A stretch of DNA of 64,000 bases from the IMG/VR virus record IMGVR_UViG_3300011442_000009, positions 1-64,000 of that record. One strand, 5' to 3'. A program made the translations under genes and the position numbers. Position 1 is the stretch's first letter. Each line of letters starts with the position of its first letter. Of this stretch, positions 10,083 to 64,000 are shown one piece after another. The notes below the pieces were generated by a model. It was not told the origin of the DNA, made no database searches, and worked only from the letters and a program-made list of their open reading frames with translations. Source of the stretch: a virus. Taxonomy: Duplodnaviria > Caudoviricetes.

Positions 10083-10862
10083 ATGGAAGACAACGGCACA
10101 ATACGGAAGTTCGAAACCGGGGCGACCCGGGACACCTCACAGAATAAAAACGACTACGAAGGCTTTTTGTCACCTCTGGTGATAGAGGCATTCGGGGACT
10201 ACATGAGCGAGAACCGCAAGCAGTCTGACGGGTCTATTCGGGACTCCGACAACTGGCAGAAAGGAATTCCGCCGATGGTCTACATGAAGAGCGGCTGGCG
10301 GCATTTCGTCCAATGGTGGAAGCTTCACCGCGGGCTGGCTTGCAAAGACGAGCGCGGTCGACCGGTCGACATGCACCACGCGATATGTGGGCTGCTTTTC
10401 AACGCCATGGGCTATTTCCACGAGTATCTAAAAGCGGAAGCGCTGAAGTCTGCCGGGTCGGCGGGAAACGCACTGGATAAAATAGCGGCTCAGGTTCGCG
10501 CTGAGAAGGAGCGAGACGCTTTTGATAAATCGCTCATGCCGAAACCGCCGGAGTATCCCCGGTATTTCGAGTCCCAAGGAGACGTTTTCGTGCTGACTTC
10601 TCCTAGCATTGGCCGGAGATACGATTCCGTTGGGCACTGGGGGGTCTCCAACTGGAGCCTGAGGAACCTCGAAGGTTTGTCCGTTACCGAGGAGATCCAC
10701 GCCAGTGAGGCCGTCTGCAGGGGTCTTCCAAATCAAATCAGCGAATGGCCGCAGCAGCTCCGGGACGACTACTACAGCCACAACAACGGCCTGTACGCCA
10801 CGCCCATGCCCGGCACTCCAGTGGAATGCCAGCTGGAGAGAGCGAGTGTGCTCAATGACTAA
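10083..10862 (+). CDS. dATP/dGTP diphosphohydrolase-like protein (DUF5664-type N-terminal domain)
   Basis: RKFETGATRD...DYEGFLSPLV..FGDYM...DNWQKGIP..YMKS..RH...CGLLFNAMGY. Confidence 0.75.
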   Translation: MEDNGTIRKFETGATRDTSQNKNDYEGFLSPLVIEAFGDYMSENRKQSDGSIRDSDNWQKGIPPMVYMKSGWRHFVQWWKLHRGLACKDERGRPVDMHHAICGLLFNAMGYFHEYLKAEALKSAGSAGNALDKIAAQVRAEKERDAFDKSLMPKPPEYPRYFESQGDVFVLTSPSIGRRYDSVGHWGVSNWSLRNLEGLSVTEEIHASEAVCRGLPNQISEWPQQLRDDYYSHNNGLYATPMPGTPVECQLERASVLND

Positions 10863-48330: not shown

Positions 48331-50369
48331 TAGTCGAGTCCCACACCGGTTGAATAGCTAGCAGGCTGAACCGCGGATAATTCCTGCTCCGCGAATTTCG
48401 TTGCGATAATTTTTGCCACACGATCCGCCGCGCGTTGGGACACAATACTCTCGGCTACTCCGGCACCCGTCGCTACAAAACCGTTCTGCTCGAGTGTTGC
48501 AGTTGCCACTGCCAAAAAATGATTCTCGGGGGCGTTAGCTAGGCCCGCTACTAGTTCCGGATACGTATCCGCTTTCACGGCCTCGCCATCATAGCGCACC
48601 GCGCGTTTGCCTTCTTCGTCCTCGCAGGCTTTCGGATTGCCATCGAGATCAGGATTCTCCAGAATCGAGACTGGGCGAATCCATCGGATCGTAGCTGGGC
48701 CATGCCCAGATATGAGGATCTGGAAATTCGTATCGATATTGTCCCGCTCGCTCTTTTCGACTGGACACGCGCCGCTCTGAGTAGCGGTCTGCTCGTCGGC
48801 ATCCTGAGTCCTCACTGTGCGAGACTGCGGCTTGAAAGAAAAGATCTGCGAGTCGAGATCTATGGGCAAATCGTAGGATAGACTCCCGCGCTCTGCGTTC
48901 AATTTCGTCACTAGAAATGGTTCAAAGGACCCGCTCATTCCACCGGCGTAGAACGCGCCGAGATCTAAATCTTCCTCGATTGCGCTTAGCGCGACGTCGA
49001 CCCATTTGAGTCGGCACTTGCTTCCGGGAGGTTTTGCTTGAACCGCGGCCGTCTGTCCGAAATAACCGCGAGTAAAGATCGCCCACGCGATAGGACAACC
49101 GTTGTCGAGCCGGTTTGGCTGGAAGGTTTCCCAGAGGCGATTTTTTCCGTCTTCGTCGTGTGCAACGTGAAAGGCTCTTTCTACTCCGCCGACTTGCCCG
49201 CACATCCACTGAACCGGCCGGGTGCCGAGCCAGTAGCCGTTCCAGCACGGACCAGAGTCGTCTGACATGCTGGTGAAGCTGGCGTTGTTTATGATCCACG
49301 TAGTGCGGTTGTACGTATCCTCTGAAGGCAGAGAAAGCATGATGAACTGACCGAACTTGCCGGAGGCCGCAAAAGAGAGATCATCGCTCAAACGGCTTTT
49401 GTCCTCGAGCATTTCGGAATCCCGAATCGGGAGCCGGGTCGTCAGCTTGGCCGAAGTAGCCGGATCGTAAATTGCCACGCCAGCCGGAGAGTACCAAATC
49501 AATTTTCCAAAGTGAGAGATAACCGATCTGTGGGACCAGCAGCCGACCTGAATAATTTCCTCTTGAAAATTGATGGTCGTAGGCCAGAGGCTGCGATCCC
49601 GGATGCTCGCCTGAACGAGGGATCCATTGGCCTGCGTGAACACCATGAGCTGCGGCGCTTCTGCCGCGGGAGTGCGAGACATCGCAGTAATCTTTCCGAT
49701 GAATCGAAAGCTGGATTGCCCGCCAAGATAAACATTTTCCCGGAAAGAAAACGGGTTCGAGTTGTCGCTCGCGAAAAGCTCGTCGTCCACTGCGACCCAG
49801 AGACGATCTCCTACCCAAACCATCGGCCCGCCTGACGGAGTGCCGTACAGGTTTCCTTTGATGTGCCCGGCATTCAGACCGTCGTACCAACCGGGGGCTG
49901 TCTCGCTACCGTCTTGGATCATCAGGACCGCCTTACTGGGAATTACCTCAATCGCCGATCCGAGATCGGTAGTCAGGCGCTGCGCGGACTGTAAAGTCTG
50001 CTCGAAAAATACTTCACCGGCGTACGGAGAAAACTGGAGGCCCGGGATTTTCGTGAATGTGGTAAACGGCCACAGGCTCTGGTAGATCTCACCGTTGACC
50101 GCGACCACCGCGATCTCAGCTCCTATGAGGGGCCGGAAAATAAACCCGCCTTGGAGGTTGCCATCTGGTAGCGTCGCCCAACACTTATATCCGGGACGGC
50201 AGGACCAGAGCCCGCCGATGTTCGTCATGTTGATCACCTGCCAAGCGTACCCTTGCGGGAGCTGGGCGGGATCCATGTCTGAGCGCACGCCAGAAGGCCA
50301 GCTCGAGTCCATATCGAGCAGCCTCGTCCCGGCAATGACCGTATCGAACGTAGTTGCAGCGGAAGCCAT
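48330..50369 (-). CDS. putative tail tubular B/stabilisation (nozzle) protein
   Basis: 679 aa, beta-propeller-like, in the canonical position after the adaptor. Confidence 0.55.
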   Translation of the reverse strand: MASAATTFDTVIAGTRLLDMDSSWPSGVRSDMDPAQLPQGYAWQVINMTNIGGLWSCRPGYKCWATLPDGNLQGGFIFRPLIGAEIAVVAVNGEIYQSLWPFTTFTKIPGLQFSPYAGEVFFEQTLQSAQRLTTDLGSAIEVIPSKAVLMIQDGSETAPGWYDGLNAGHIKGNLYGTPSGGPMVWVGDRLWVAVDDELFASDNSNPFSFRENVYLGGQSSFRFIGKITAMSRTPAAEAPQLMVFTQANGSLVQASIRDRSLWPTTINFQEEIIQVGCWSHRSVISHFGKLIWYSPAGVAIYDPATSAKLTTRLPIRDSEMLEDKSRLSDDLSFAASGKFGQFIMLSLPSEDTYNRTTWIINNASFTSMSDDSGPCWNGYWLGTRPVQWMCGQVGGVERAFHVAHDEDGKNRLWETFQPNRLDNGCPIAWAIFTRGYFGQTAAVQAKPPGSKCRLKWVDVALSAIEEDLDLGAFYAGGMSGSFEPFLVTKLNAERGSLSYDLPIDLDSQIFSFKPQSRTVRTQDADEQTATQSGACPVEKSERDNIDTNFQILISGHGPATIRWIRPVSILENPDLDGNPKACEDEEGKRAVRYDGEAVKADTYPELVAGLANAPENHFLAVATATLEQNGFVATGAGVAESIVSQRAADRVAKIIATKFAEQELSAVQPASYSTGVGLD

Positions 50370-50370
50370 T

Positions 50371-51378
50371 TTATCGTATGTCGTAGTCGTACTTATCCCG
50401 AGGGCTGTTCCAATCCAAGATTTGAGGCGGCATGTACGTCGGCGGCTCCAGCTTCAATTGCGCCTCGAGCTCCAGCCGGGCCGCATTGGCTTCGAATTGC
50501 TGCCCATTGGCAAGCTGCTGCTCGCTGTAGAGCTTCCGCGCGCGGAGCGCCATGAGGAACGCCACTCTGCTGCTCATCGGAATGTGATCCCAACGAGAAC
50601 GAAATTCATTGATCGATTTGATGTACGCGATACGCACCCAAGAGCAGGACCTGTTTAAACGTATCCTTCGGTACTGGGGCAAAGTCTCGTCGGGTTCGTA
50701 AACGCCGAGGAGCAGCCCGGGGCTGTTCGTGCTGCCGTCATCGATTGTGGAGAGCCGGATCTGTCCAACAGAAAGACCCTTCTGGACGCTGGTGATCCTC
50801 GCCACGATTGGCGCGGTGTCATCGGGGACTGCAACGCCGTAGATCGTCGGCACTCGGTACCCGTTCAGCCAGACGCCATTTTCCAGACGCCGAAGAACAT
50901 TGCCGTTGCTGTCGTACCCGAAAACGATCAAAGCCACTCCATTGTCCGCCGGTGTCGCGGTATACGCTACGAGCTTCGCCGGTGTGATAAGGTCCCGGTA
51001 GGTCGGCCAGCCGTATCCCTTGTCGTCGTACGACCATTCGCAGACCGTACGGCAAGAGCCGGTGCCGTTCAAATGGAATTCGAAAAGTTGGCTGCGGCCT
51101 AAGAGAGGTTGACCGCCGATGTTCACCCCAATAACTGTCAGAACCTCTCTCGGGAGGGAGAGGCATCTGCGACCGCAGCCGGAGGAGTTGCCGCAATTCA
51201 TTCCGCTCTGACAAGAGCAGCCCACCGTGCAGATATCCGCCCAGCCCTTAATGCCCTCTAGATCCTCTTTGTTCGCGACAAGAGAGACCGCGTCTCCGAC
51301 CCAGCGCAAAAGCTTGGCATCGTCACAGGTGCCGATGACCTGCTTGGCGTCTTCCCAGATCGAGTCTACGGTGAACAT
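50371..51378 (-). CDS. putative head-tail adaptor/tail tubular A-like protein
   Basis: Helical N- and C-termini flanking a beta insert; position upstream of the nozzle-like gene. Confidence 0.45.
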   Translation of the reverse strand: MFTVDSIWEDAKQVIGTCDDAKLLRWVGDAVSLVANKEDLEGIKGWADICTVGCSCQSGMNCGNSSGCGRRCLSLPREVLTVIGVNIGGQPLLGRSQLFEFHLNGTGSCRTVCEWSYDDKGYGWPTYRDLITPAKLVAYTATPADNGVALIVFGYDSNGNVLRRLENGVWLNGYRVPTIYGVAVPDDTAPIVARITSVQKGLSVGQIRLSTIDDGSTNSPGLLLGVYEPDETLPQYRRIRLNRSCSWVRIAYIKSINEFRSRWDHIPMSSRVAFLMALRARKLYSEQQLANGQQFEANAARLELEAQLKLEPPTYMPPQILDWNSPRDKYDYDIR

Positions 51379-51381
51379 ATT

Positions 51382-51720
51382 TTAGTAGGATTCTTTGTCT
51401 TTGCCGAAAGCTTTTGCCAGTGCGTCGAGAGCATCCTCCGCGGAGGTGTCGCGCTTCGAAGGGCGGTTGTCTTTCTCGCCCTTCACTTTTTCAATCGAAA
51501 GAACTTCGACGGTGCATGTGTACCGGCCTTCCCGTACGTCCTCGGTCTCGCGCACAGTCCGGAACTTGATCACCATTTCTCCTTCCTCCGGGAGCTCGAG
51601 CTCCTTGTCGCCGGAGTAAGTAAATTCAGGGTAATAAACACGGTCCCGGTCGTTGATCGGGGTCGCGATGCTGCCGCCGCCAAATTCGCTAGCACGGCCG
51701 AGATCTATTGGAGTACTCAT
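51382..51720 (-). CDS. hypothetical late protein
   Basis: 112 aa; ATG lies 8 nt after CGACTGT. Confidence 0.7.
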   Translation of the reverse strand: MSTPIDLGRASEFGGGSIATPINDRDRVYYPEFTYSGDKELELPEEGEMVIKFRTVRETEDVREGRYTCTVEVLSIEKVKGEKDNRPSKRDTSAEDALDALAKAFGKDKESY

Positions 51721-51724
51721 AGTA

Positions 51725-51765
51725 TAGAACAGTCGGAGGTTACCGTATCTCGCGCCAGTTAAAAG
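51725..51765. repeat. 41-bp direct repeat, copy 1 (contains late-promoter motif 51729..51757)
   Basis: 37/41 identical to 53364..53404. Confidence 0.85.
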
Positions 51766-53341
51766 TAGCCATCGCCGCGGTCGTCCCGCCGATCCCAGTA
51801 ACCAACAAGGAAAGAGTGCCTAGAGAACGCGCCACCCCGGCGGCGTCCAGTGTAATCGGATATCTATTGTTCAGCGACACGGAGGGAGCGCTTCGACTGC
51901 CTCCATTGGCCGCGACATACCCACTTTGGAGAACAATAGATGGGGAACCGCTGATCGTCCCGGCAGTGTTAAACTCCGTCGTCGAGTAGCCCGTATTCAC
52001 GTTAGTGAATGCGGTAGTGCCGCTTATCGCCTGCCCCAGCACAAGTTCCCACTGAATTGGTCGGTCTCCGGTGCCGGTAATCTCTATCGATTCCAGTACG
52101 AACTTAGACCGAGTTGTTATAGAATTGAAAGTCGCTCTCGGGCGGACCGAGAGGAGATGCACGCGCGTACCGTTTCCTGCTGTGGCAGCACCGGAGATCG
52201 AAAAGGAGAGCCCGGGTATGTCTTCTTGCCCTCCGTTTGAAGAGACGCTGGCGCATACAAAACGCATCGTGGTCGAGACCGTTCCGGTGCAAGTCATCCC
52301 GGCTCTGATCGGCAGGTTCGCGCTCTGGATGTATGGGAAGGCCACTGTATTCGCATGGCGAAACTCGTGCACCGGAACTATGCGGCCGTCGATGTCAAAA
52401 CCGACGCGAACCCGGCCGGTATACAGCGCTTGAATATCGATGACAAAAATCTGAGCCTTTGTGAGATCGAGAGTCTCGCCGCTAATCCCAGTTCCGTCAA
52501 GTTTGTCGATGTTCCAATTGGCTTTCGTGACTATCTGGTTGCCGTTTCCGGTGCCGGACAGCAGGGCCAACTGAACCGTAGTGCCGTCCTGCTGGAGCTC
52601 TACCCCGTTCACCCCGTCGGAGTATCCTATAAACTTCAAGGTGTTCACCACGGCCTCTATAAAATTGAACGTAACAAAAACCTCGAGAGACCTGCCCGGC
52701 TGATACCGGAAGCACTCGAAGCTTTGAAGAAAAGATTTACCTCCGGTCGGCGTGCTCGCAAAGGTCATGAGCGCGCTTCGGTTCGTGGAATCGTGGGCCA
52801 CGGTCGCGCCGGTCCCGAGAACTATTGTCTCATACACGAGAGGCGGGATCTCGTAAGTGAGTTGAGAATCGAAAACATACGTTGGAGTCGCTACTCTGAG
52901 CCGAGAGAACGCGTCGAGCGTGTCCGGAATGGTAACCGTGACCGGGTCGGTTATGTGGCTAATCGGCACCTCTGCGGCAATCGATACTGGGACCGTTCCG
53001 GCTATCGATACCGGGGCCGCTACCGACACCGGGACCGTTCCGGCTATTGATACCGGGGTCGCGATGCTGCTAACCGCGACCGGATTCGTGATGCTACTCA
53101 CTGCGACTGTTCCGCCCACCGTAGCCAAAATCGGTTGCGGAAACGATACCGGCAGCGGAGCATCGGCCGTTACGTGCCACAGAGCCCCGGATGGATCCGG
53201 GAAAACTCCCAGAGGCTGGGTGATGTTTACGTTATCGAAGTGGATTGCGTCAATTGGTATGCCCTCGTTTAAACGCGTTAGAACTTTTCGAAGCAGGTTG
53301 TTGTCTGAATCTGCCTGTTTGTACGTAGTGTCTGTTGCCAT
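51740..53341 (-). CDS. putative virion decoration/fibre protein with Ser/Thr/Val/Pro repeats and a lectin-like domain
   Basis: DAFSRLRV...FRYQPG...WNIDKLDGTG.SG.TLDLTKAQIF.ID...GRVRVGF pattern; 14-aa repeats VSIAGTVPVS. Confidence 0.65.
   Translation of the reverse strand: MATDTTYKQADSDNNLLRKVLTRLNEGIPIDAIHFDNVNITQPLGVFPDPSGALWHVTADAPLPVSFPQPILATVGGTVAVSSITNPVAVSSIATPVSIAGTVPVSVAAPVSIAGTVPVSIAAEVPISHITDPVTVTIPDTLDAFSRLRVATPTYVFDSQLTYEIPPLVYETIVLGTGATVAHDSTNRSALMTFASTPTGGKSFLQSFECFRYQPGRSLEVFVTFNFIEAVVNTLKFIGYSDGVNGVELQQDGTTVQLALLSGTGNGNQIVTKANWNIDKLDGTGISGETLDLTKAQIFVIDIQALYTGRVRVGFDIDGRIVPVHEFRHANTVAFPYIQSANLPIRAGMTCTGTVSTTMRFVCASVSSNGGQEDIPGLSFSISGAATAGNGTRVHLLSVRPRATFNSITTRSKFVLESIEITGTGDRPIQWELVLGQAISGTTAFTNVNTGYSTTEFNTAGTISGSPSIVLQSGYVAANGGSRSAPSVSLNNRYPITLDAAGVARSLGTLSLLVTGIGGTTAAMATFNWREIR
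52989..53058. repeat. 42-bp-period coding duplication
   Basis: gggaccgttccggctat[ct]gataccgggg twice, 27/28 identical. Confidence 0.8.
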
Positions 53342-53363
53342 AACTTACCTTTCCTCCGAGCAT

Positions 53364-53404
53364 TAGAACAGTCGAAGGTTACCGAACCTTGCGCCAGTTA
53401 AAAG
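53364..53404. repeat. 41-bp direct repeat, copy 2 (contains late-promoter motif 53368..53396)
   Basis: 37/41 identical to 51725..51765. Confidence 0.85.
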
Positions 53405-53586
53405 AGAGGAGTGACTTGCGTAGGGACGAGGGTGTCAGGAGGAAGATTCCCGGAATCGTCCGGGTTCGTCACCGCGAGCGTGTAGCCCGGAGGACGAATG
53501 GTCATAGCGCCGCCACGCGTTCCTTCGCAGGGTCCTGCGAGGACGTGATCGACATCTTTGATCAATGGAAAATTGCTACCGTTCAT
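53398..53586 (-). CDS. small hypothetical protein
   Basis: 62 aa; starts 1 nt after the previous stop and has its own promoter-like motif at 53610..53638. Confidence 0.55.
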   Translation of the reverse strand: MNGSNFPLIKDVDHVLAGPCEGTRGGAMTIRPPGYTLAVTNPDDSGNLPPDTLVPTQVTPLF

Positions 53587-53587
53587 T

Positions 53588-54640
53588 TTAGGTTACCCGT
53601 ACCCACGTAACAGTCGTACGAGGAGCGATCAGGCGACAGTCTTTCCCGAAGGACTGAAGCTCGATAGTCGTGTAGTTGCTCGTGGTCGTTACTATCGCAC
53701 AGGAGGAAATCGGGACGTACGAACCGCCGGAAAATCCGGTCAGCGCGACGAAAGACCCGGGAAGGAACTTTGGATCCTGCGTAGGATCCGGAGAAGTGTT
53801 GTTTGCGGGGTTTGTGGTATCGACGAGCCCCGCATAAACCGTGGGATTGCTCCCTGTGGCGTACACCATCGTGACGAACCGGAAAAGATACTTCCCGGCA
53901 GAAGTCAGTCTAAACGTCACTTTCCCAGTATCTGCGCTAGGAGTGAAATTCACCAGAGTCGCCGCGGCCGTCGGTACGAAATCTGTCTGATCGTCCGCGC
54001 CGACGAAGCTGCCGGTTTGCTGTGTGGGACCCGCAGACAGCGTTTCCCCATTTTCGCCGTCGATGCCCTTGTCCCCCGGAAGTCCTTTGTCTCCCTTGTC
54101 TCCAGTAAGCCCGAGATCGCCGTGTGGGCCTTGCAGATCCTGTCCTTTAGGCCCGGTGGGTATGATCAGCTTACCGGCCGCTATGACGCCGCTTGCGCCA
54201 AGCTGGGGCTGTACTAGGGTCACCGTGAGGTTCCCATAATCGTCCGCAACGAGGACCTGATACCACCCGGAACTTCCCACGAAAATTATTTCGTTGACCT
54301 TGATCACCGGGTTGAAAATGGTGCGTAGGATGAACGGCGTGCTGTTCGTGGGTTGGGTGAAGGACGCGATTGAAACCGTGTAGCCGTTGAACCCGTTCAG
54401 GCCCATGAGCCCCGGCTCGCCTTTGGGGCCGCGCAATGCTTCAATCTCCTCACGCAGGAGGCGCAGGAAATAACAAGCCACTCCTTCGTCCGCGCTGCGC
54501 GGGTCGTCCGGAAGACCGGTATCGAGACTGCACGGAAGCTCCCACGCCACTATCCCGGGAGAAACGTCTACCTTCGTAACGCCATCCCCGAACAACGAGA
54601 AGGTGAAATTGTTTACTTGGCTTTGAAGTGATTCGGCCAT
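53588..54640 (-). CDS. collagen-repeat fibre protein (paralog B)
   Basis: Two Gly-X-Y tracts; N-domain W.LPC.LDTGLP...E..ACYFLRL shared with 54640..55761. Confidence 0.75.
   Translation of the reverse strand: MAESLQSQVNNFTFSLFGDGVTKVDVSPGIVAWELPCSLDTGLPDDPRSADEGVACYFLRLLREEIEALRGPKGEPGLMGLNGFNGYTVSIASFTQPTNSTPFILRTIFNPVIKVNEIIFVGSSGWYQVLVADDYGNLTVTLVQPQLGASGVIAAGKLIIPTGPKGQDLQGPHGDLGLTGDKGDKGLPGDKGIDGENGETLSAGPTQQTGSFVGADDQTDFVPTAAATLVNFTPSADTGKVTFRLTSAGKYLFRFVTMVYATGSNPTVYAGLVDTTNPANNTSPDPTQDPKFLPGSFVALTGFSGGSYVPISSCAIVTTTSNYTTIELQSFGKDCRLIAPRTTVTWVRVT
53610..53638 (-). promoter_or_regulatory. putative late promoter TGTCGC-N16-CGACTGT
   Basis: Motif family member embedded in the 3' end of 53588..54640. 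Confidence 0.45.
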
Positions 54641-55761
54641 TAGCTTAGTTGGACAAAGGTGATCGTAGTGTTCTCAGGGTAGACCTTACCCTGTTTCCCG
54701 AAAGCTTCAAGCCGCACAATCTGGTTCGGGACAGTAGTGACGTGAATCGCGGACATCGGAATAATTCGCACGGTATTCGAGGCGTTGAATTCCTCGGTTC
54801 CGGTTACTGCGGCCGCGGCGGTCTCGTCATAGAGCCGCACCGAGAACGCGACACCAGACGTATGGGAGGAGATCGCAGTGGTTACCGTCAGAAGGTACGT
54901 CCCGGCGGTCGTGAGAGTCACCTTCGGCATCGAGGACGTAAAATCAACAGGAGTCCATGCCGGGCCAGTGTTGGGATTCGTATAGAGCGTACCGGCGTCA
55001 TCGTGGTACTGACCATTGTTATTCGTGGTGCCAGAAGTCGGGCCGCTCAATCCGGGAAGACCCTGATCGCCCTGCTCTCCCTTATCACCGTCATCGCCCT
55101 TCAAACCCTTCTGTCCGGGATCGCCCTTTTCGCCGGGAACTGAAAGACCTTGTGCACCCGCTGGAAGAACCAAACTCCCCGCGGCAATCGTTACCGGGGG
55201 ATTCGTTACAATCGCCAGAAGCGCCAGAAAAAGGGTTCCATCCGCGATGTTCGCGTCCACGCGATACCACCCAGAAGACTCAATGAAAACCTGCATGCCC
55301 GGTAAGATCGCCGGGTTGTACGAGGTTCTGACTTGGATCTGCGGGTTCTGGAGAGTCGGCTGCGTGAACGACTGCGTAAGTGCCGTGTACGCGTTGCGTC
55401 CATCCGCGCCGGGATTCCCACGATCTCCGGGAAGACCGGGAGTGCCGAGTATGCCGTCCGCAAAGAGTCGGAGAAAATAGCATGCCAAAGGCTCGGTAGC
55501 GCCGCGCGCGTTATTCGGCAGACCGGTGTCGAGAGTGCACGGCAGAGACCAGCTCACGACGCCGTTGATTTCGGTCTTGATTACTTCACCGAAAAACTGC
55601 TTGGTGAAATTCTCGATCTGGCTCGGAAGCGTTTCGCTGGCTGCCGTGTTGGTCGGATCCGTTCGGCACGGATTGCCGCAGGACATGAACCCGTTCGTAC
55701 ACGTGTCTAGCGGGTTTACGTTAGAATTCTCGGTCCCGTCACCGCAGCTTGTGCAAGGCAT
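54640..55761 (-). CDS. collagen-repeat fibre protein (paralog A)
   Basis: Same architecture as 53588..54640; GEKGDPGQKGLKGDDGDKGEQGDQG. Confidence 0.75.
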   Translation of the reverse strand: MPCTSCGDGTENSNVNPLDTCTNGFMSCGNPCRTDPTNTAASETLPSQIENFTKQFFGEVIKTEINGVVSWSLPCTLDTGLPNNARGATEPLACYFLRLFADGILGTPGLPGDRGNPGADGRNAYTALTQSFTQPTLQNPQIQVRTSYNPAILPGMQVFIESSGWYRVDANIADGTLFLALLAIVTNPPVTIAAGSLVLPAGAQGLSVPGEKGDPGQKGLKGDDGDKGEQGDQGLPGLSGPTSGTTNNNGQYHDDAGTLYTNPNTGPAWTPVDFTSSMPKVTLTTAGTYLLTVTTAISSHTSGVAFSVRLYDETAAAAVTGTEEFNASNTVRIIPMSAIHVTTVPNQIVRLEAFGKQGKVYPENTTITFVQLS

Positions 55762-55764
55762 AAA

Positions 55765-56514
55765 TTATTTCAGTAAATGGTCTACCACCGACTTGACGTC
55801 TCCGTCCTGCGCCTTTTTATGCGACTCGACGAAGGCATCCAAAATTGACTGCCGAAGAACCGGGTCCTCGAGAGTATCGTTGGCCCACTTCATAAATTTC
55901 TTTCCGCCGTCTACGAGCTGTACCACTCCCCTCGAGGCCGTAGAGCTCGCGACATTCATCGCCCCTACTCCAACCATCGCCGCGGGATTCGCCGCGGAAG
56001 CCGCAGTCAATACCAGCTTGAGGACATGAAATCCAAGAAAAGCAAAAAGCGCTGCAGCGCCCAGCCATACAAAGTACGGAACCTGCACGAGGCCGGTGCC
56101 TTCAATCTTTTTGCCGACGTTCTCGTTACTATCATCCTTAAAAGAATCGACCTTTTTGGAAAGCACCGCGAGCGTTTTGCGCACCTCATCCGCCAGCGCC
56201 ACGGTGTCAATCGTGGGCCGCTTAGCCGGAGGCCCGAGGACGTCCGCGACCGCGTCGGTCAGCACGACCGTTTCAGTAGCGGGGGAAATGACGAACGGGC
56301 TCGCCTTTTCTGCGACGGCGGCGACTAGCGTCTCGCTCGCCTTTTCTTTTGCGCGCTGCGCGGCCTGCCTTTGTGTCTCCTTCGCCGCCTGCGTCGCCTC
56401 TGGGAACTTTTTCACCTTGTCCTGAAAGAGTTCCACCTTCTTGGGTATTAGTGTCCCGCAGCCGGTAAGAAAGACCAAGGCGACGAGCGATAAAAGATAG
56501 GATGTTTTTTTCAT
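55765..56514 (-). CDS. lipoprotein with internal TM segment (possible spanin)
   Basis: Lipobox MKKTSYLLSLVALVFLTG-C, coiled-coil region, then hydrophobic VPYFVWLGAAALFAFLGFHVLKLVL. Confidence 0.6.
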   Translation of the reverse strand: MKKTSYLLSLVALVFLTGCGTLIPKKVELFQDKVKKFPEATQAAKETQRQAAQRAKEKASETLVAAVAEKASPFVISPATETVVLTDAVADVLGPPAKRPTIDTVALADEVRKTLAVLSKKVDSFKDDSNENVGKKIEGTGLVQVPYFVWLGAAALFAFLGFHVLKLVLTAASAANPAAMVGVGAMNVASSTASRGVVQLVDGGKKFMKWANDTLEDPVLRQSILDAFVESHKKAQDGDVKSVVDHLLK

Positions 56515-56701
56515 TTTTCTTGATGAGGTGGCGAATGGTGAGGATGCCAATCGCAATTTGGATTAGGGTTAGGGTGAAGCTCAAAAAAGGTCCTAGATTC
56601 TGCATGACCGCTTGGACTCCCGCGAGCGAAATGTTCACTCCGAGGAATCCAAAAAGTTTGCGTTCGTGTTCTATCACAAAAGAAATATCTTGTACTTGCA
56701 T
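56273..56701 (-). CDS. holin-like 2-TM protein (ORF runs on into the next gene)
   Basis: The first ~62 aa hold two TM helices ending in the basic tail RHLIKK; located just upstream of the lipoprotein. Confidence 0.45.
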   Translation of the reverse strand: MQVQDISFVIEHERKLFGFLGVNISLAGVQAVMQNLGPFLSFTLTLIQIAIGILTIRHLIKKNEKNILSFIARRLGLSYRLRDTNTQEGGTLSGQGEKVPRGDAGGEGDTKAGRAARKRKGERDASRRRRRKGEPVRHFPRY

Positions 56702-56707
56702 TGGGGG

Positions 56708-57028
56708 TTATATGGCCTCGAGCCACTTTCGCAAAAGGTCATTGAATGTGTCGGCCGGTTTGGGGGTGCCCCCCGTGAGTACGACAATTTTTCTCACGAT
56801 TGTGTATATCAAGTCTCCCGGCGAAAAGGTCCCGCCGTACGTTACCAAAATCTTTCGGAGGATGTTGCTTCGAAGATCTCCCGGGGAAAAAGTGCCGCCC
56901 CGGGCAACCAGAATTTTTCGAAGTAAGACGTTCTCCAGATCGCCCGGTGAGAAGGTCCCGCCATAGACGGCAAGAATTTTCCTCATGACGGTCGAGTCAA
57001 GGTCGGCCTGTCTGTAGGTTGTAGCCAT
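56708..57028 (-). CDS. tandem 19-aa repeat protein (GDL...LRKIL..GGTFSP), possible capsid decoration protein
   Basis: About five repeat units; immediately downstream of the capsid gene. Confidence 0.75.
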   Translation of the reverse strand: MATTYRQADLDSTVMRKILAVYGGTFSPGDLENVLLRKILVARGGTFSPGDLRSNILRKILVTYGGTFSPGDLIYTIVRKIVVLTGGTPKPADTFNDLLRKWLEAI

Positions 57029-57045
57029 GGTTTTTTAAAGAGAAT

Positions 57046-57078
57046 GGGGGCTGTCGGCTGTTAGGCCGGACAGCCCCC
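57046..57078 (-). terminator. hairpin after the capsid gene (partial terminator or processing site)
   Basis: gggggctgtc/gacagccccc stem; followed on the minus strand by ATTCTCTTT. Confidence 0.55.
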
Positions 57079-57132
57079 AAGGGTTTCCCTACCCCGATGA
57101 CCCGAGCGAGTCACCGAAAGGGTGTGATTTGA

Positions 57133-58449
57133 TTACAGCGTCGGATAACCGGGTCCGATCACAGGAGTCTCGTCGTCACCGCAAACACCAATGTTGGTGA
57201 AGCTGTCCGCACCACTGTAGGAGCTGGAGTTGGACGACGCGCAGGCGATCAAGCCGAGATCAGCTTGGCAGCGCTTGTAGAGGATCGGGATGATCCATTG
57301 AGGGCGCAGCGGGCGATAGGCCCGGGTGATCTGGTACTGGTGCCAGCCGAAGTCGCCGCGGCTATTGCACTCGTTGTCGATGACATAGTGCCATTCGAGC
57401 TCACCCATGTGCAACTGCGGGGAGAACTTGAAGCTGCCTTCGCCGACATACTTCTCGGGCACGAGGCGCTCGAAGCTTCCGTCGGCAATCAGCACGCCGA
57501 CTTCGTAGTCAGCGGCCAGCCAAGCGGGATTCGGTTTCGCAAAGGCCACGCCCCGGGAAGGGTTCGCGACGATCACGACTGGGTCAACCAGTGCGAGGGT
57601 GCCGTCTTCGTTGAAGCCAGTGGCCCGGAGGGGACGCTGATCAACACCGAAGGCAATACCACGGTAAGCCGGGCTCTGCTCGAAGGAGTAGGCCGTCAAG
57701 GTCTGCTCGCCGAGTTTGTACCCGCCAGTGGTCAAGGCAACCATGACGTTCTGCACGCCGACTTCCGAGCGAAAATACTCGATCTGGTCGGTGCCGCCGA
57801 TGAAGCGGAAGTGAGGCATTCCCTCGCTCTGGCTGTACCACTCGCCGAAGAGCACCTCTTTGAGGTACCGGGCAATGTAGTGCAGCGCCTTGAAGGTCAT
57901 CGGACCCGTAGGCAACAGCGGGGCGAACTTCACGCCGAGATCTGTTTCCAGACCGCCGGTGAAAAGCGAATTGAAATCGTAGTTCGCGTTGGCCGTGAAC
58001 TTCGAAGCGGATCGCAGGTACAGCTGGGCGCGGATGTCCGCGTTGATGTACTGGGTGACCAGTTTCTTCATGGAGTCTTCCGCCGTGCCGTACGAGCTCT
58101 TAAACGCGGCGTACCCCTGCTTGACGCAGATGTTCGGGCCGCGGCCACGGAAGCTCTCGAGGCGGAGCGTGAATTCGACAGTGTCAGTCAGATCCTGATT
58201 ACCAGTCTGGCCGCAAATGTCGGTATCGCACACGAAGTTGGGGATCGCCAGTGAATCACCGGGAGCCGCCTGCATCTGGACGATGCTTCGAATGGCGTCA
58301 GACGTGCCGGACGGGAAGGTCCCGCCGCCGATGACGTTCATGTATACGCTGTTTGCAGCGACCGCCTTGGCCACTTGACCAACAATTCTGTTGGTGTCCT
58401 TACTGGCTATGTCGCTGATATCAGAGGGGTTATCGCAAAAAAATGCCAT
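57133..58449 (-). CDS. major capsid protein (putative)
   Basis: 438 aa with strongly biased codons, its own promoter and a downstream hairpin; HK97-like length and pattern; first structural gene after the glycosylation cassette. Confidence 0.75.
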   Translation of the reverse strand: MAFFCDNPSDISDIASKDTNRIVGQVAKAVAANSVYMNVIGGGTFPSGTSDAIRSIVQMQAAPGDSLAIPNFVCDTDICGQTGNQDLTDTVEFTLRLESFRGRGPNICVKQGYAAFKSSYGTAEDSMKKLVTQYINADIRAQLYLRSASKFTANANYDFNSLFTGGLETDLGVKFAPLLPTGPMTFKALHYIARYLKEVLFGEWYSQSEGMPHFRFIGGTDQIEYFRSEVGVQNVMVALTTGGYKLGEQTLTAYSFEQSPAYRGIAFGVDQRPLRATGFNEDGTLALVDPVVIVANPSRGVAFAKPNPAWLAADYEVGVLIADGSFERLVPEKYVGEGSFKFSPQLHMGELEWHYVIDNECNSRGDFGWHQYQITRAYRPLRPQWIIPILYKRCQADLGLIACASSNSSSYSGADSFTNIGVCGDDETPVIGPGYPTL

Positions 58450-58617
58450 AAACGTGATGTGGTTAAACTACGGGTGACTACATAAATCCGGGTCACTTGT
58501 CCGGGCACAGAAAGTTTTCCCCTGTGCGGGAGTTATGTTTGTCGCCGTAGGCCAAACAGCGGAGAGCTCAGGCCGTTCTCGGTGAAGTCAAACCGAGCAT
58601 CTTTTAGACTTCAGAAG

Positions 58618-58646
58618 AGAGTCGAAGGGAATCGAAAAAAGCGCAA
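58618..58646 (-). promoter_or_regulatory. putative late promoter TTGCGC-N16-CGACTCT for the capsid gene
   Basis: Motif family member, followed by a ~165-nt structured leader. Confidence 0.55.
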
Positions 58647-58653
58647 GTGCGTT

Positions 58654-59157
58654 TTAGTGGGTTTGGAGATAGATAGCTGCTTTCTGAAGAATTTCGGGCT
58701 GATCTTTCGCGTATCCCAAAAGCGTATTGCAGTCTTTGCACAAGAGTCCGCGCACGCGGTCGGTGCTGTGGCAATGATCGACGTGGAGTCTGCGGCCTTT
58801 TGAATCTGCGTTCTCTGCGCCGCAAATCGCGCATCCGCTGTTCTGGTTTTTCAAAAGAACTTCATACTCCTCGAGTGTGATCCCGTACGCGCGGCGCAAA
58901 ACTGCTGACTTGTGTTTCCGGGGGTGCGCTTTGTTCCACGCTCTGCGCGTCGCGGCATGCTGCTCCGGGTGCTTCTTCGCCCATTCGCGGGCTTGTCTCG
59001 CGTCTTCTCCCGGGTGGGCGAGTCTCCATACGTCTTTCGCCGCGCATTCACATACACGACAGCTATGACGAAACCCGGGCGCGTGTCCGTGCGGCCGAAA
59101 GTTTTGAGCGTTCAGTTCTTTTTCGGTCCCGCACTTTTTGCAAACCCGAATACTCAT
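58654..59157 (-). CDS. endonuclease VII-like homing endonuclease
   Basis: YGITLEEY..LL..Q..GCAIC...LHVDHCH...VRGLLCxxCN..LG...D. Confidence 0.9.
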   Translation of the reverse strand: MSIRVCKKCGTEKELNAQNFRPHGHAPGFRHSCRVCECAAKDVWRLAHPGEDARQAREWAKKHPEQHAATRRAWNKAHPRKHKSAVLRRAYGITLEEYEVLLKNQNSGCAICGAENADSKGRRLHVDHCHSTDRVRGLLCKDCNTLLGYAKDQPEILQKAAIYLQTH

Positions 59158-59882
59158 CGAGGATGCGTCTGGTTATATCGGAGCCGGGCGTTCGCCATCT
59201 GAAGAACTACCCCGCGATCCTTGATCGCATGAAGCATGATCCCACCGGCGTTCGTAATCCGATCCAGCATGTGCGCTACCCCGGGCGCGTCGTTACGCGT
59301 AGGGCAGCTAACTCCTCCCGGAAAAGTTTTGTGGGGTTCCTTGGCTTCCGCGGTGAGGCGCATTAAATAGTGGTCAATAAATTGTAGTTTCATATCCTCG
59401 AACGGGAGCCGGGCGCAGGCGTCGAAGTGGGCCTGAAGGCTCCGGCGCGAACAGAAGTACGGAGGTTGCGCCGCGTATCGGGGGAAAGAATACCCCTCGG
59501 GCATCGTGTGCATGTGATCAGAAGCTTCGTTCGACCAAAACACATCTTCGTCATAGAGGTACCTCGGCAACTGCGGCGAAAGGCAGACCGAGTCCGAGTC
59601 GTTCATGAGAATGTGTTTAAACGAGAATTCGAGCATCACCCTCATGTGCTGTTTCTGCCGTTCAAGTGACGCAGGGCCAATATACGCCCGCTCTCCCGCA
59701 GTCCGGAAAATTAACTGCTTGCTGGTTGATCCGAGAGCTTGGGGAGTTATAGGTGCATCGTTGGGGGAGAGTATCAGCACCGGGCACTGATGGTGCAGAT
59801 AGTACGGCAACAAGTTTTTGATTTGGTGAGCGTCTCCGGCGTATCCGCAGACGGCAACGAGCGTGTCAGGATTCAGGGGCAT
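59154..59882 (-). CDS. putative GT-A fold glycosyltransferase
   Basis: [11 protein letters not shown] (DxD after a beta strand); located in the gmd/fcl cluster. Confidence 0.5.
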
Positions 59883-60832
59883 AGCTGTAGTTCTTTCAAG
59901 ACCATTTCACGGACAAGATCTCCGAAGCAGACGGTCGGCTGCCATTTCAAAACCCGCTTAGCTTTCGATGGGTCTCCCAAGAGGACGTCCACTTCGGCCG
60001 GGCGAAAATACTTTGGATCCGTGGTGACATATTCCTGCCAATCGAGATCGACGTAATCGAAAGCGATCTCGCAAAATTCGCGCACGGAATATGTCTCCCC
60101 CGTGGCAATGACGTAGTCATCCGGTTTGTCCTGCTGGAGCATCAGCCACATCGCGTGCACGAAATCTTTAGCGTGCCCCCAATCGCGCTTGGCGTCGAGG
60201 TTTCCTAGCACGAGGTTCTTTTGTCGGCCCCGCTTTATGCGCGCCACGGCCTTCGCGATTTTGCGAGTGACAAACGTCTCGCCACGGCGCGGGGATTCAT
60301 GGTTAAAAAGTATTCCGTTGCTGGTGTGGAGACCGTAAGATTCCCGATAATTCTTGGTAATCCAGTAAGAGTAAACTTTGGCGCACCCGTAAGGACTGCG
60401 CGGATAAAAGGGAGTGTTTTCATGTTGGGGAGGGGGACTCGCCCCGAACATCTCGGAGCTGCTGGCTTGGTAAAATCGGGGATAGCAACCGCCAAGGCTG
60501 CGAATCGCCTCGAGGATACGGATCGTTCCCAGACCCGTCGCGTCACCGGTATACTCCGGCACATCGAAGCTCACCTTCACGTGGCTCTGCGCCGCGAGAT
60601 TATATATCTCGTGCGGAGTCGTGTCGTGAATCACGCGAGTCATGGCGGACCCGTCGGAGAGATCTCCATAGTGGATGTTTAAACGATCAAATATATGATC
60701 GATCCTGCCGGTGCTGAAACTGCTCGACCGGCGCATGATTCCATGCACCTCGTAGCCGTAGCTGAGCAATTCCTCAGCGAGGTAGCTTCCGTCTTGGCCG
60801 GTTATCCCGGTTATTAGTGCTCGTTTCGGCAT
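59873..60832 (-). CDS. gmd: GDP-mannose 4,6-dehydratase
   Basis: [82 protein letters not shown]. Confidence 0.97.
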
Positions 60833-61740
60833 AAGAAGTCTTGATAGGCTAGTTTGATTCCGTCTTTGATGTTAGTTCTGGGTTTCCATCCCAGTTCGAA
60901 AATCTTGTGGCTGTTAAGTAACCGGCGGGGAGTGCCGTCCGGTTTGCTTTTATCCCAGTGAATGTTCCCGGTAAATCCGGTGGCTTCCGCTACTAGACCG
61001 GCCAGCGTGCCGAGCATCAGCTCTTCGCCACTCCCGATATTTGTAAGATCGTCCGCCTTGCCCGCCACGAGAAGTTTTATCGCAGCCTCCGCGAGATCGT
61101 CCGCGAACAAAAATTCTCGGGTCGGCGTGCCGCTTCCCCACAGAATCACGTCGTTTGCCTTGGCTTTCACGGCCTCGTGGAACTTCCGGACCATGCCCGG
61201 CAAAACATGCGAGTGCTCCGGGTGATAGTTGTCCCCAATCCCGTAGAGATTCGTAGGCATGCACGAAATGAAATGGCGTTTGTGCTGCTCCCTAATTGCT
61301 TGGCACATTTCGATGCCCGCGATCTTCGCCACTGCGTAGGCCCGGTTCGTTTCCTCGAGCGGGCCGCACATAAGCTGATTCTCCTGAATGGGGACCTGCG
61401 CGTGCTTCGGGTAGGCACAGGCGCTACCGAAAAACAGAAACCTAGAGACCCCGCAACCTAGAGCTGCCTCCATGGTGTTGGTCTGTATTCTAAGATTGTC
61501 CCGAATAAAATCCGCTCCCAGCCTGCTGTGCGCCATGATGCCCCCGACCTTGGCCGCGGCGTGGAAAACCACGTCCGGTTGGTAAGCTAGAAAATATTCC
61601 CAAGTACGGTCCCAGTCGGTCAGATTGAGGACTCTCGAAGAGGGCGACAGAATTTCATCAGCGCCGTATCCCAAAACTTTGAGTTGTCGAATCAACGCTT
61701 GGCCAACGAGGCCGTGCCCGCCAGTGACTAGAATTCTCAT
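60814..61740 (-). CDS. fcl: GDP-L-fucose synthase (epimerase/reductase)
   Basis: [70 protein letters not shown]. Confidence 0.95.
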
Positions 61741-62474
61741 ATCTTTTCACCTAGAAGGTGACGCCGACCCAGCTCGATTAGCGAAAGGTCCTTGACCCCG
61801 TGGATCCAGATTAACTGACCGCGTTGGGCCTCGTGGAACTTCTCCAGCGTGTAGCCTCTAGTTGCATACCACGATACAATACCGGGGATGTTTGCCCAAC
61901 CTCTTTTTTTAAACTGGGGAGAGAGCGCGTAGTCCCAGCCCACATTAGCTTTCAGGCCGTCCGCGGTCCTGAGCACCCACTTCAGCATGGTTGCTTCTCC
62001 GTTGACGAGAAGGTTGCCGTTCATGTGCTCCGCCGGGATGTACACTACCGGGCCAGCGACGCAGACCGGTTTCGGTTTGTTCGCGTAATCCCACGCCTGA
62101 GACATACGAAGGATCCAGTCAGGGAAAACCGGACACCCGTCAGACTCGCAGGTGAAAATTGCCTTGTACCGCGGGATCCTGCGTGCGGCACTCATCGACT
62201 CCGCCCACCGAATTGTATTTATCCAAAGAGAATTGCAACCGGCGGGCCAGCCGGTGTTCCCCCGGGGCGCAGAGTACTGCCACAAGTTAAACTTGCGAGA
62301 GATCTGCAGGGCAATGGGGCCGGGCAACGAAAGGCAATCGTGCCGGTTTACCAACAGCACGTCCGCCAGATCCGAATGCCTCGGCTCGAGATCAGCGAGG
62401 TACCTTATGAGAGCCTCGGCCTGAGCCTTATCGCCTTCCCAGTACTGAAGTGCGATCAGTATTTTATTGCTCAT
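61737..62474 (-). CDS. putative GT-A fold glycosyltransferase
   Basis: AIFTCESDGCP (ExD), HMNGN and GWDY motifs; ATGA-coupled within the cassette. Confidence 0.5.
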   Translation of the reverse strand: MSNKILIALQYWEGDKAQAEALIRYLADLEPRHSDLADVLLVNRHDCLSLPGPIALQISRKFNLWQYSAPRGNTGWPAGCNSLWINTIRWAESMSAARRIPRYKAIFTCESDGCPVFPDWILRMSQAWDYANKPKPVCVAGPVVYIPAEHMNGNLLVNGEATMLKWVLRTADGLKANVGWDYALSPQFKKRGWANIPGIVSWYATRGYTLEKFHEAQRGQLIWIHGVKDLSLIELGRRHLLGEKI

Positions 62475-63397
62475 CGGCTGAGAACCCCTTGTGGCTTGGG
62501 TGTTGTATTCTTCGGGCCGTAAACGCAGTGGCCAATGTGTCCGCATATTAATCCTAAATCGACGTAAGGCGTGTGCCCGGCCGCTTTGGCCCGAAGACAA
62601 AAGCTTACGTCTTCACCGACACCAAGAGTGTTTTCTGCCTGAGCGAGTGCAATAGCCGATTCCAGACCGCGGAGCGCGTCGTACCCTTTCGCGGCCGTGA
62701 TGGGTCCGTCGGCCAGCGCGTTCCGTACCCTCGCAACTTGATCAAGAAGGCTCGCCTCAGTCGAAGTGAACCAGTTTCCTCCAGCCTTGTTCGGGCCTTG
62801 TCGGGCGATACGCGGGAACACTTTTTCGATGTCCTCGAAAACTGTGCGGTGAGTAAGAAGGCAGCCAGTTCCAACCCATCGAGTTTCCTGAATTTTGTCA
62901 TAGGGACCTTTGCGGTAGTATTCAGCGACCTGCGGATTCGCGCTTCCCTCGTTGGTGACCGGGGGTCCGTACCGGTGACGCCCAAAATACAGTCCGCCGA
63001 CGAGAGACTTTCCGTGGCTCATGAGCCGGTCGAGAGTGTTTAAACCCATAAACTGCTCCGGAAAATCGAAGTTCGTATGAGATCGATACCAGTCGGCATT
63101 CCCGAAGGGAAGCAGCATGTCGTCGTCGACCCAAAGAGCATAATCGCACGGGGACTTTAAAAAGATTTCGGCGCAAGTGTTCCGCGTGTGTGAAATAAAG
63201 GCGTCGCCCCACGATAACAAACAGGATGTTCGCCGACGGTCTATCAATTGAGCGACACAGAAGGCCGTCATTGGCGACACGTTCTTGTGCCACGGCATGA
63301 TAATCATAACCTTCTTCGAGACCATGGCAACCGCCGCAGATTTATCCGCCAGGAGCCCGGGTCCTCCTCCTGTTTTATCTGAAAATCCTAACTCCAT
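62471..63397 (-). CDS. GT2-like glycosyltransferase
   Basis: YALWVDDDM, WVGTGCLL..R.VFE, GEDVSFCLRAKAAG...VDLGLICGHIG. Confidence 0.8.
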   Translation of the reverse strand: MELGFSDKTGGGPGLLADKSAAVAMVSKKVMIIMPWHKNVSPMTAFCVAQLIDRRRTSCLLSWGDAFISHTRNTCAEIFLKSPCDYALWVDDDMLLPFGNADWYRSHTNFDFPEQFMGLNTLDRLMSHGKSLVGGLYFGRHRYGPPVTNEGSANPQVAEYYRKGPYDKIQETRWVGTGCLLTHRTVFEDIEKVFPRIARQGPNKAGGNWFTSTEASLLDQVARVRNALADGPITAAKGYDALRGLESAIALAQAENTLGVGEDVSFCLRAKAAGHTPYVDLGLICGHIGHCVYGPKNTTPKPQGVLSR

Positions 63398-63939
63398 GCT
63401 TTTCCTTTTCGTAAATTCTCTTGTTTAAACAACGGCTGCGTATTTGACCAATTGAAACACTGTCTCTGTTGGCCGGGATCTCTAAGATCGAAACTGGCGC
63501 AAGGGCGTTTGTGATCCACATGCCAAACTCGACCGTAGTTTTCCCAGCTCATCCCCGGTTTGAACTGCCCGGCTAGGTACTCTCGGTACTCTTCGATACC
63601 GCAGCCCAGCAGCTCTATAGAGCTGCCGTGTTTTACGCTATCTCGAAGCGCCGCCCGGACACGGCTCCTGAGAGTCCACATAAGTCGAAACCCACTGTCG
63701 GTTTTTAGCCGATTTTTAATATACCGTCGGTTTGAGGCTCGGTACTTGATCGCGTTCCGGTGATACCGGGCTAGGGACATCTTACGACTCCGGGCCACGT
63801 CAGAATAGTAGCTCTTTTCTTTGTGCCGCCTAGTTCTTTCCGGATTCTCTCGTCTCCGGTCGCGTTGCAGTTTCCACCTACGCCGCACCGCCAATAAGAG
63901 CGCGGCGCGGTGGAAATCGAATGTCAATTCTTGGCCCAC
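63388..63939 (-). CDS. HNH/endonuclease VII-like homing endonuclease (prasinovirus-type)
   Basis: ELLGC...YL..QF..GMSWENYG..WHVDHKRPCASFDL....Q..CFNWSNTQPL...ENL.KG. Confidence 0.85.
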   Translation of the reverse strand: MGQELTFDFHRAALLLAVRRRWKLQRDRRRENPERTRRHKEKSYYSDVARSRKMSLARYHRNAIKYRASNRRYIKNRLKTDSGFRLMWTLRSRVRAALRDSVKHGSSIELLGCGIEEYREYLAGQFKPGMSWENYGRVWHVDHKRPCASFDLRDPGQQRQCFNWSNTQPLFKQENLRKGKAWS

Positions 63940-64000
63940 GCTAGAACCTTATCAGATCTTATGTGTTTTCCCAACTACTTTTTAAGTGGCGGCTCCGGTG

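Follow-up and report, generated by a model that had tools for sequence, protein, structure and literature searches.

The gene island at 59154-63397

The window analysed here comprises bases 1-64000 of the IMG/VR record IMGVR_UViG_3300011442_000009, a 75,330-bp genome of an uncultured tailed phage that is rated complete by CheckV. On its minus strand, at 59154-63397, lies an island of five overlapping open reading frames (ORFs), here designated A, B, fcl, gmd and C, which was examined as a candidate system for the glycosylation of virion proteins. The original prediction had described five overlapping minus-strand genes, and each was recovered as an ORF at exactly the same coordinates, with overlaps of 4-19 nt. 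Together with an endonuclease gene on either side they form a chain of seven genes, whose successive overlaps are 10, 4, 4, 19, 10 and 4 nt. In the order of transcription, the genes are:

63388-63939, minus strand: HNH/endonuclease VII-like homing endonuclease, 183 aa; weak match to PHROG 1035 (endonuclease VII), E 2.7e-5
62471-63397, minus strand: gene A, 308 aa; putative glycosyltransferase, core gene
61737-62474, minus strand: gene B, 245 aa from the ATG common to its homologues; predicted GT-A glycosyltransferase, core gene
60814-61740, minus strand: fcl, predicted GDP-L-fucose synthase (GDP-4-keto-6-deoxymannose 3,5-epimerase/4-reductase)
59873-60832, minus strand: gmd, predicted GDP-mannose 4,6-dehydratase
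59154-59882, minus strand: gene C, predicted GT-A-like glycosyltransferase, accessory gene; probable distant paralogue of B
58654-59157, minus strand: endonuclease VII/HNH homing endonuclease, 167 aa; match to Pfam PF02945 (Endonuclease_7), 2e-24

The two matches given for the outermost genes bear out the earlier description of the block as flanked by homing endonucleases. Inside the block, sigma-70-like promoters and terminator-like sites were no more frequent than in shuffled sequence. No hydrophobic segment was found in the products of A, B and C (maximum Kyte-Doolittle 19-residue mean <1.3), and all three are predicted to be soluble enzymes.

Genes for GDP-L-fucose synthesis

The names first given to gmd and fcl both held. 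Gmd scored 506 bits against TIGR01472, for which the equivalog cut-off is 415, over residues 3-317, and could be aligned over its full length with GDP-mannose 4,6-dehydratases of known structure (PDB 1n7g, E 4e-125). Part of the gmd gene is 64-70% identical at the DNA level to gmd of cyanophages. For Fcl, all 18 of the 18 PDB matches at E ≤ 1e-20 were GDP-L-fucose synthases, the best being 8du0 (E 4e-85, residues 2-303), and the stretches G-S-x-C-x-Y-P, Y-A-x-A-K and S-H-V-L-P are identical in the alignment to solved enzymes of this kind. Its score on NF047922, 365 bits, lies under the equivalog cut-off of 500, and the runner-up family reached just 54 bits. The prediction that Gmd and Fcl together convert GDP-mannose of the host to GDP-L-fucose is thus well supported by sequence.

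Predicted glycosyltransferases B, C and A

Searches of Pfam, NCBIfam, PHROG and PDB gave no sequence match for B, and in particular no match to Pfam GT31. A full HMMER search found 470 relatives, and an AlphaFold2 model built from an alignment of 87 sequences had a pLDDT of 97.7 and a pTM of 0.93. Foldseek related this model to GT-A enzymes with probability 1.0. The best match in VIA-align was a GT31-type enzyme (Z 17.0, rmsd 3.5, 208 residues aligned); 963 of 999 chains reached Z ≥ 8, all 50 among the matches listed were glycosyltransferases, and the viral structural matches were likewise all GT-A transferases. On the strength of this model B can be assigned with very high confidence as a GT-A fold glycosyltransferase, the class for which it had originally been proposed. 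Its top structural matches, at Z 15-17, were GT31-type enzymes (B3GalT5/6, C1GalT1, Fringe and chondroitin synthase), which align with B over about 200-211 residues (rmsd 3.4-3.5) and appear to share with it an acidic-x-Asp motif after the fourth strand, although the sequence identity is only 8-12% and the Pfam GT31 model does not detect B. The motif in B consists of the near-invariant E110 and the invariant D112, following a predicted strand at 105-110; H225, in strand 223-227 and a candidate metal ligand, is also invariant and K228 nearly so. In longer proteins the B domain occurs fused to GT2, GT9 and Nucleotid_trans domains.

Gene C likewise had no family match in Pfam, PHROG and NCBIfam scans. 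The ESM Atlas holds a model of the exact protein (pTM 0.77), which gave TM scores of 0.70-0.74 to the GT14/GT31-type families Branch, Fringe and Galactosyl_T. D95-x-D97, H218 and K221 are invariant, and D-x-D, Q-P-P-Y-F and H-x-x-K are common to 12 homologues. The Atlas model and the invariant D95-x-D97 agree with the earlier description of C as a DxD-containing transferase of the GT-A type, and it is predicted to be a GT-A-like glycosyltransferase. Alignment of C with B by hhalign covered 210 columns at E 0.0027, but with a probability of 11%; the Y-x-G-D, DxD and H-x-x-K motifs were in register, and a distant paralogy of the two genes is probable.

More than 600 homologues of A, none of them named, were found in metagenomes. 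Two motifs are invariant across the family, DDD at 91-93 and G-E-D at 261-263 (E262-D263), the latter within G-E-D-x-x-F-C-x-R. Among 26 members of the family, weak matches were obtained to five PHROG glycosyltransferase families, namely 34859 (23 members), 842 (19), 2456 (18), 12406 (18) and 1579 (11), with best E values from 1.8e-4 (34859) to 4.7e-3. All 26 also match PHROG 1574, the function of which is not annotated. A Pfam scan of the same members at E ≤ 10 returned just Fringe in three and Anp1 in two, at E ~0.07-0.09. On the weak PHROG matches and the DxD and ED motifs, A is considered a putative glycosyltransferase with modest support. Its original label, GT2-like, was not confirmed, since no GT2 model detects A even in a single-genome search: PF00535 and PF13641 gave no hit at E ≤ 10 against the six-frame translation of the genome, and hhalign of A with three GT2 domains gave a probability of 1.9%. 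Membership of A in the Pfam GT2 families was rejected on these results. The alignments of A with B and with C were not significant, and a search for longer, fused forms of A gave nothing significant.

Conservation of the island in related loci

Related loci were compared from three sources: 27 IMG/VR loci found via A, of which about 13 are distinct; six loci of a distant subclade, retrieved with a B homologue of 26% identity; and one contig of a metagenome-assembled genome (MAG). A was present in 34 of the 34 loci, and B is its neighbour in all loci that extend past it downstream. In every locus with covered flanks the A-B pair is located between a scaffold-like gene and the gene for a capsid-like protein, so that glycosyltransferase and capsid-like genes are linked in every relative covering the site. 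The original prediction had named such linkage among its own checks, and this one was passed. It also holds for the six distant loci, in which the capsid-like proteins are 52-53% identical to that encoded here, A 37-40% and B 25-28%. Over L030 and L034-L039 together, identities run from 52 to 67% for the capsid-like protein and from 37 to 44% for A.

The remainder of the island varies. Some loci contain A and B only, others A, B and C, and others A, B, fcl, gmd and C; in some, gmd comes first and is followed by fcl and an additional paralogue of C. In loci complete across the island, gmd occurs only where C is present, and is placed between B and C. In one locus (L019:12544-14446) the partner of gmd, standing where fcl would be, is a gene that most resembles GDP-mannose 3,5-epimerases (E 4e-44). 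Another (L014:10867-12569) encodes a 240-aa protein with no known family, a polysaccharide pyruvyl transferase and a divergent B; the 240-aa protein is 27% identical to a 247-aa protein of L019, which is also of no known family. In a third, a Mom-family gene (PF25680, E 6e-34; L005:13545-14192) is found inside the island, between gmd and C. The endonuclease gene at 63388-63939 is absent from the same site in the related loci, and that at 58654-59157 is present there only in L010, L022 and L030.

The island thus consists of a fixed two-enzyme core, A and B, and a swappable module for sugar-donor synthesis and tailoring. As gmd and fcl are missing from many relatives, fucose is not the essential feature of the system, and the central role first ascribed to it was not borne out.

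No match was obtained when the capsid-like protein, A, B, C and the 710-aa protein described below were compared by tblastn with 50,697 phage records, and a locus search seeded with one distant B homologue returned no viral locus. Homologues of the capsid-like protein occur on MAG contigs (L030-L033) that were classed as Peribacteraceae, Rhodoferax, Microbacteriaceae and Nitrospirota. Most likely phage contigs were binned with these genomes, and because the four taxa are unrelated the host cannot be named from them.

Setting in the head operon

Three further features, all on the minus strand, define the surroundings of the island:

genome 63982-65334, minus strand: 450-aa scaffold-like gene, so called from composition and position; its 3' end (63982-64000) lies in the window
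58618-58646, minus strand: late-promoter-like motif TTGCGC-N16-CGACTCT, ahead of the capsid-like gene
57133-58449, minus strand: gene for a 438-aa probable major capsid protein, from gene order, conservation and its own promoter motif

Upstream of the island are encoded, in this order, proteins of 671, 196, 710 (portal-sized, and probably the portal), 114 and 450 aa, none of which had a family match. The 671-aa protein contains the Walker A sequence GAASMGKS and by tblastn weakly matches an annotated large terminase. The 450-aa protein is rich in Ala (18%), Glu (12%) and Lys (12%) and poorly conserved (25-67%), and its gene is always directly upstream of the island in related loci. On the other side, the 438-aa gene is separated from the island by the endonuclease gene at 58654-59157 and a 204-nt spacer that holds the late-promoter-like motif.

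Within the lineage no other protein is conserved as highly as the 438-aa protein, which is 77-92% identical in close loci and 52-67% in distant ones. Examined as a possible HK97-fold major capsid protein, it had no match in Pfam, PHROG (E ≤ 5) or NCBIfam, PDB profile searches with two alignments gave noise, and no match to Pfam Phage_capsid (PF05065) was found in the genome. An AlphaFold2 model from 25 close homologues had a pLDDT of only 33.7. The gene is regarded as probably that of the major capsid protein because it follows the scaffold-like gene, is the most highly conserved and has its own promoter motif. Of the original description of the island as lying just before the major capsid gene, the position within the late head-gene block stood, whereas the capsid assignment drew no support from family or fold, and island and capsid-like gene are set apart by the endonuclease gene and the 204 nt. 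At least seven cysteines of the protein are invariant across the 25 homologues, and four stay so when homologues down to 52% identity are included. Its variable C-terminal tail sits between conserved cysteines, which may reflect a disulfide-stabilised shell or loop.

The promoter-like motif is one of a set. A two-part sequence, T-N-G-C-R-C followed after 16 nt by CGACT(C/G)T, occurs in eight copies on the late (minus) strand and in one on the opposite strand, and all eight minus-strand copies precede late genes (window 1057-58646; genome 67842-67870). It may be the late promoter for the sigma-like protein of the phage (25781-26461). One copy stands just before the 710-aa gene (genome 67870-67842) and the next before the 438-aa gene. 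As there is none in between, late promoters at these motifs would place the island on one transcript with the portal and scaffold genes and leave the 438-aa gene with a promoter of its own.

Proposed function of the island

The reading that we favour, with a confidence somewhat above even, is that the island directs glycosylation of virion proteins by means of a variable sugar module placed in the head-morphogenesis operon, the capsid protein being the likeliest acceptor. While the head is assembled, A and B would attach the first sugars to a virion protein, with nucleotide sugars of the host as donors. In this phage Gmd and Fcl would add GDP-L-fucose to the available donors, and C, which is present in every gmd-containing locus that spans the whole island, may transfer the 6-deoxyhexose. 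The composition of the variable part supports a role in glycan synthesis, as it is all glycan chemistry (fcl, the GDP-mannose 3,5-epimerase-like gene, pyruvyl transferase, paralogues of C). The reading is further favoured by the fixed place of the A-B pair, the order of the head genes, the placing of the promoter-like motifs, the gene overlaps, the lack of hydrophobic segments in the enzymes and the mycobacteriophage precedent discussed below. Because relatives swap this accessory part, related phages would bear different surface glycans.

The acceptor is most likely the probable capsid protein encoded just downstream, which is preferred because it is adjacent to the island; fibres or other virion proteins are also possible. 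In most relatives the capsid-like protein ends in a variable tail rich in Ser and Thr. As a universal acceptor this tail was dropped, and since the distant subclade has A and B without the Ser/Thr patch, it could at best be one acceptor site.

Other virion proteins were also considered. The Ser/Thr-rich repeats originally proposed as an acceptor, at 52989-53110, proved to be a Pro/Val/Ser/Ile/Ala repeat in which no 20-residue window reaches 50% Ser plus Thr. The protein that contains them, a 533-aa virion structural protein (51740-53341; PHROG 1645, E 9e-72) with N-terminal P-V-S-I-A-G-T-V-like repeats, has no detectable homologue in any related locus, so the proposal was not supported. Other DNA replaces its gene in several loci that span the site, whereas A and B are universal, and it behaves like a swappable receptor-binding protein. 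Collagen-like fibres were rejected as acceptors, their triplets being Lys-rich rather than Thr-rich. A late protein of 518 aa (46774-48330) is exposed on the virion and offers another possible acceptor; its Ig-like repeats match PHROGs of tail and Hoc-like decoration proteins (E 1e-39).

Several results weigh against virion glycosylation or against parts of it. For A there was no Pfam (E ≤ 0.01), NCBIfam or PDB profile match, hence no match to a curated glycosyltransferase family, and the probable capsid protein draws support neither from family nor from fold. The distant subclade, in which the capsid-like protein has a short tail lacking the Ser/Thr-rich segment, has nonetheless kept A and B, and late proteins show no enrichment of the motifs [ST]-G-[ST], S-G and triple Ser/Thr. 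A, B and C have no detectable sequence relation to gp108-110 of mycobacteriophage Che8. Finally, unrelated cargo is also found at the site, namely homing endonucleases and, in L005, the Mom-family gene, so that position alone is weaker evidence for the accessory genes than for the core.

Alternative explanations

The enzymes might instead remodel the host envelope, acting, in the manner of auxiliary metabolic genes, on lipid-linked or surface glycans of the host and thereby blocking superinfection or the sticking of progeny to debris. The combination of gmd, fcl and glycosyltransferases is typical of O-antigen and exopolysaccharide clusters, relatives of gmd occur in many cyanophages, and the gmd, fcl and fucosyltransferase genes of cyanophage S-SCSM1 have been read as cell-wall modification genes (PMC9602691). 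The long proteins in which the B domain is joined to GT2 or to GT9 (heptosyltransferase-type) domains agree with such a role. However, A and B occupy a single fixed site in the head operon across deep divergence, and the promoter motifs point to a late transcript shared with the portal and scaffold genes. The island also has no membrane segments, flippase, polymerase or lipid-carrier enzymes, and no sigma-70-like promoter above chance from which a lysogen could express it. Envelope remodelling is therefore considered unlikely. A different possibility, that insertions are simply tolerated between the scaffold-like and capsid-like genes and that gmd, fcl and C are unrelated to the role of A and B, is suggested by the homing endonucleases, the Mom-family gene and several ORFs without known family that occupy the gap in some relatives. 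For the endonucleases and the Mom gene this is partly true. For the sugar genes it appears improbable, given that nearly all family-assignable inserts act on sugars, that gmd is always found with C and between B and C in loci complete across the island, and that all island genes overlap.

Least probable of all, and in our view a very slight prospect, is that the transferases decorate modified bases in the phage DNA as a protection against restriction, as in T-even and other phages. Diverse phage glycosyltransferases hypermodify DNA, according to the account of Pyle et al. 2024 given in PMC12619734. Of the 26 members of the A family, 19 weakly match a PHROG named beta-glucosyl-HMC-alpha-glucosyltransferase (best E 0.0047), and the gene inside the L005 island belongs to a DNA-modification family. 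Against this, no hydroxymethylase of the thymidylate-synthase type was found in the complete genome, nor among the 20 largest ORFs of the early arm, and the island is in the late head operon, away from the replication genes. Moreover, no GDP-fucose-dependent DNA modification is known.

Virion glycosylation by a fixed core with a variable sugar module is thus retained as the preferred function. It can be extended to the proposal that capsid glycosylation is an obligatory part of head assembly throughout this large lineage of wholly uncultured tailed phages of ~57-75 kb, in which the A-B pair would be as fixed in place as the scaffold and capsid genes and a swappable donor module would give rise to "capsid serotypes". 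The module would then provide fucose, products of GDP-mannose 3,5-epimerase, pyruvylated sugars and extra transferases. This extension is offered tentatively, and we hold it to be rather less than an even prospect.

Other features of the genome

The plus strand up to ~31.8 kb represents the early or replication arm, with a family A DNA polymerase, helicases, the sigma-factor-like protein and HNH endonucleases, and the late genes are on the minus strand, running from the right genome end. At 10083-10862 there is a weak match to the N-terminal domain of a dATP/dGTP diphosphohydrolase (PF18909, E 3.9e-4, below the cut-off), which could hint at nucleotide-pool editing. Near the right end, a 263-aa serine recombinase with a Resolvase and a partial Recombinase domain is encoded (L002:8063-8854, genome 71062-71853); either an invertase or an integrase is conceivable.

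Significance and comparison with known systems

Experimental proof of phage-encoded virion glycosylation is confined to a few mycobacteriophages. Should the function proposed here be correct, it would be a core, lineage-wide trait of abundant environmental phages, A and the capsid-like protein each being represented by more than 600 protein clusters. A and B would constitute two new transferase families without curated annotation. A variable sugar module would point to selection acting on the virion surface, through host defences, adsorption, grazers or particle stability, and "capsid serotypes", if they exist, would be the virion counterpart of O-antigen diversification.

In chlorovirus PBCV-1, a virus-encoded GDP-mannose dehydratase and GDP-fucose synthase supply GDP-L-fucose, and viral GT-A transferases serve to build a capsid glycan that contains fucose. 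The phage studied here resembles it in having a virus-encoded GDP-fucose pathway. The structure of the PBCV-1 capsid glycosyltransferase A64R (2p73) matched B at Z 13.7, a resemblance at the level of the fold only and below that of many cellular GT31 enzymes. Unlike the present phage, PBCV-1 is a giant virus of eukaryotes with a double-jelly-roll capsid, and its glycosylation genes are scattered rather than gathered in an island. The T4-like cyanophage S-SCSM1 (PMC9602691) is similar in encoding Gmd and Fcl, but there gmd, fcl and the fucosyltransferase genes are in an accessory cluster and are not fixed between scaffold and capsid genes.

A functional parallel may be provided by mycobacteriophages, in which capsid and tail-tube subunits carry C-terminal glycans, as stated in passages of PMC12619734 and PMC12363180 that cite Freeman et al. 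2023. As in the systems named there (Che8 gp108-110, Corndog gp38, Myrna), a tailed phage would here use its own soluble glycosyltransferases, and the Ser/Thr-rich C-terminal tail of the capsid-like protein in most relatives recalls the C-terminal glycans that those passages describe on mycobacteriophage capsid subunits. No relation is seen at the sequence level: tblastn of A, B and C gave no match in the 50,697 phage records, and hhalign with gp108-110 gave E values of 0.0067-0.57 and probabilities below 6%. Che8 gp108-110 are encoded at the right genome end whereas the island here is in the head operon, and the region of Che8 at 50000-59471, which includes gp108-110, contains no annotated gene for nucleotide-sugar synthesis whereas the island has gmd and fcl. 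Glycosylation of the virion is proven for mycobacteriophages and predicted for the present phage; the island is not a member of the mycobacteriophage family and would resemble mycobacteriophage virion glycosylation in function.

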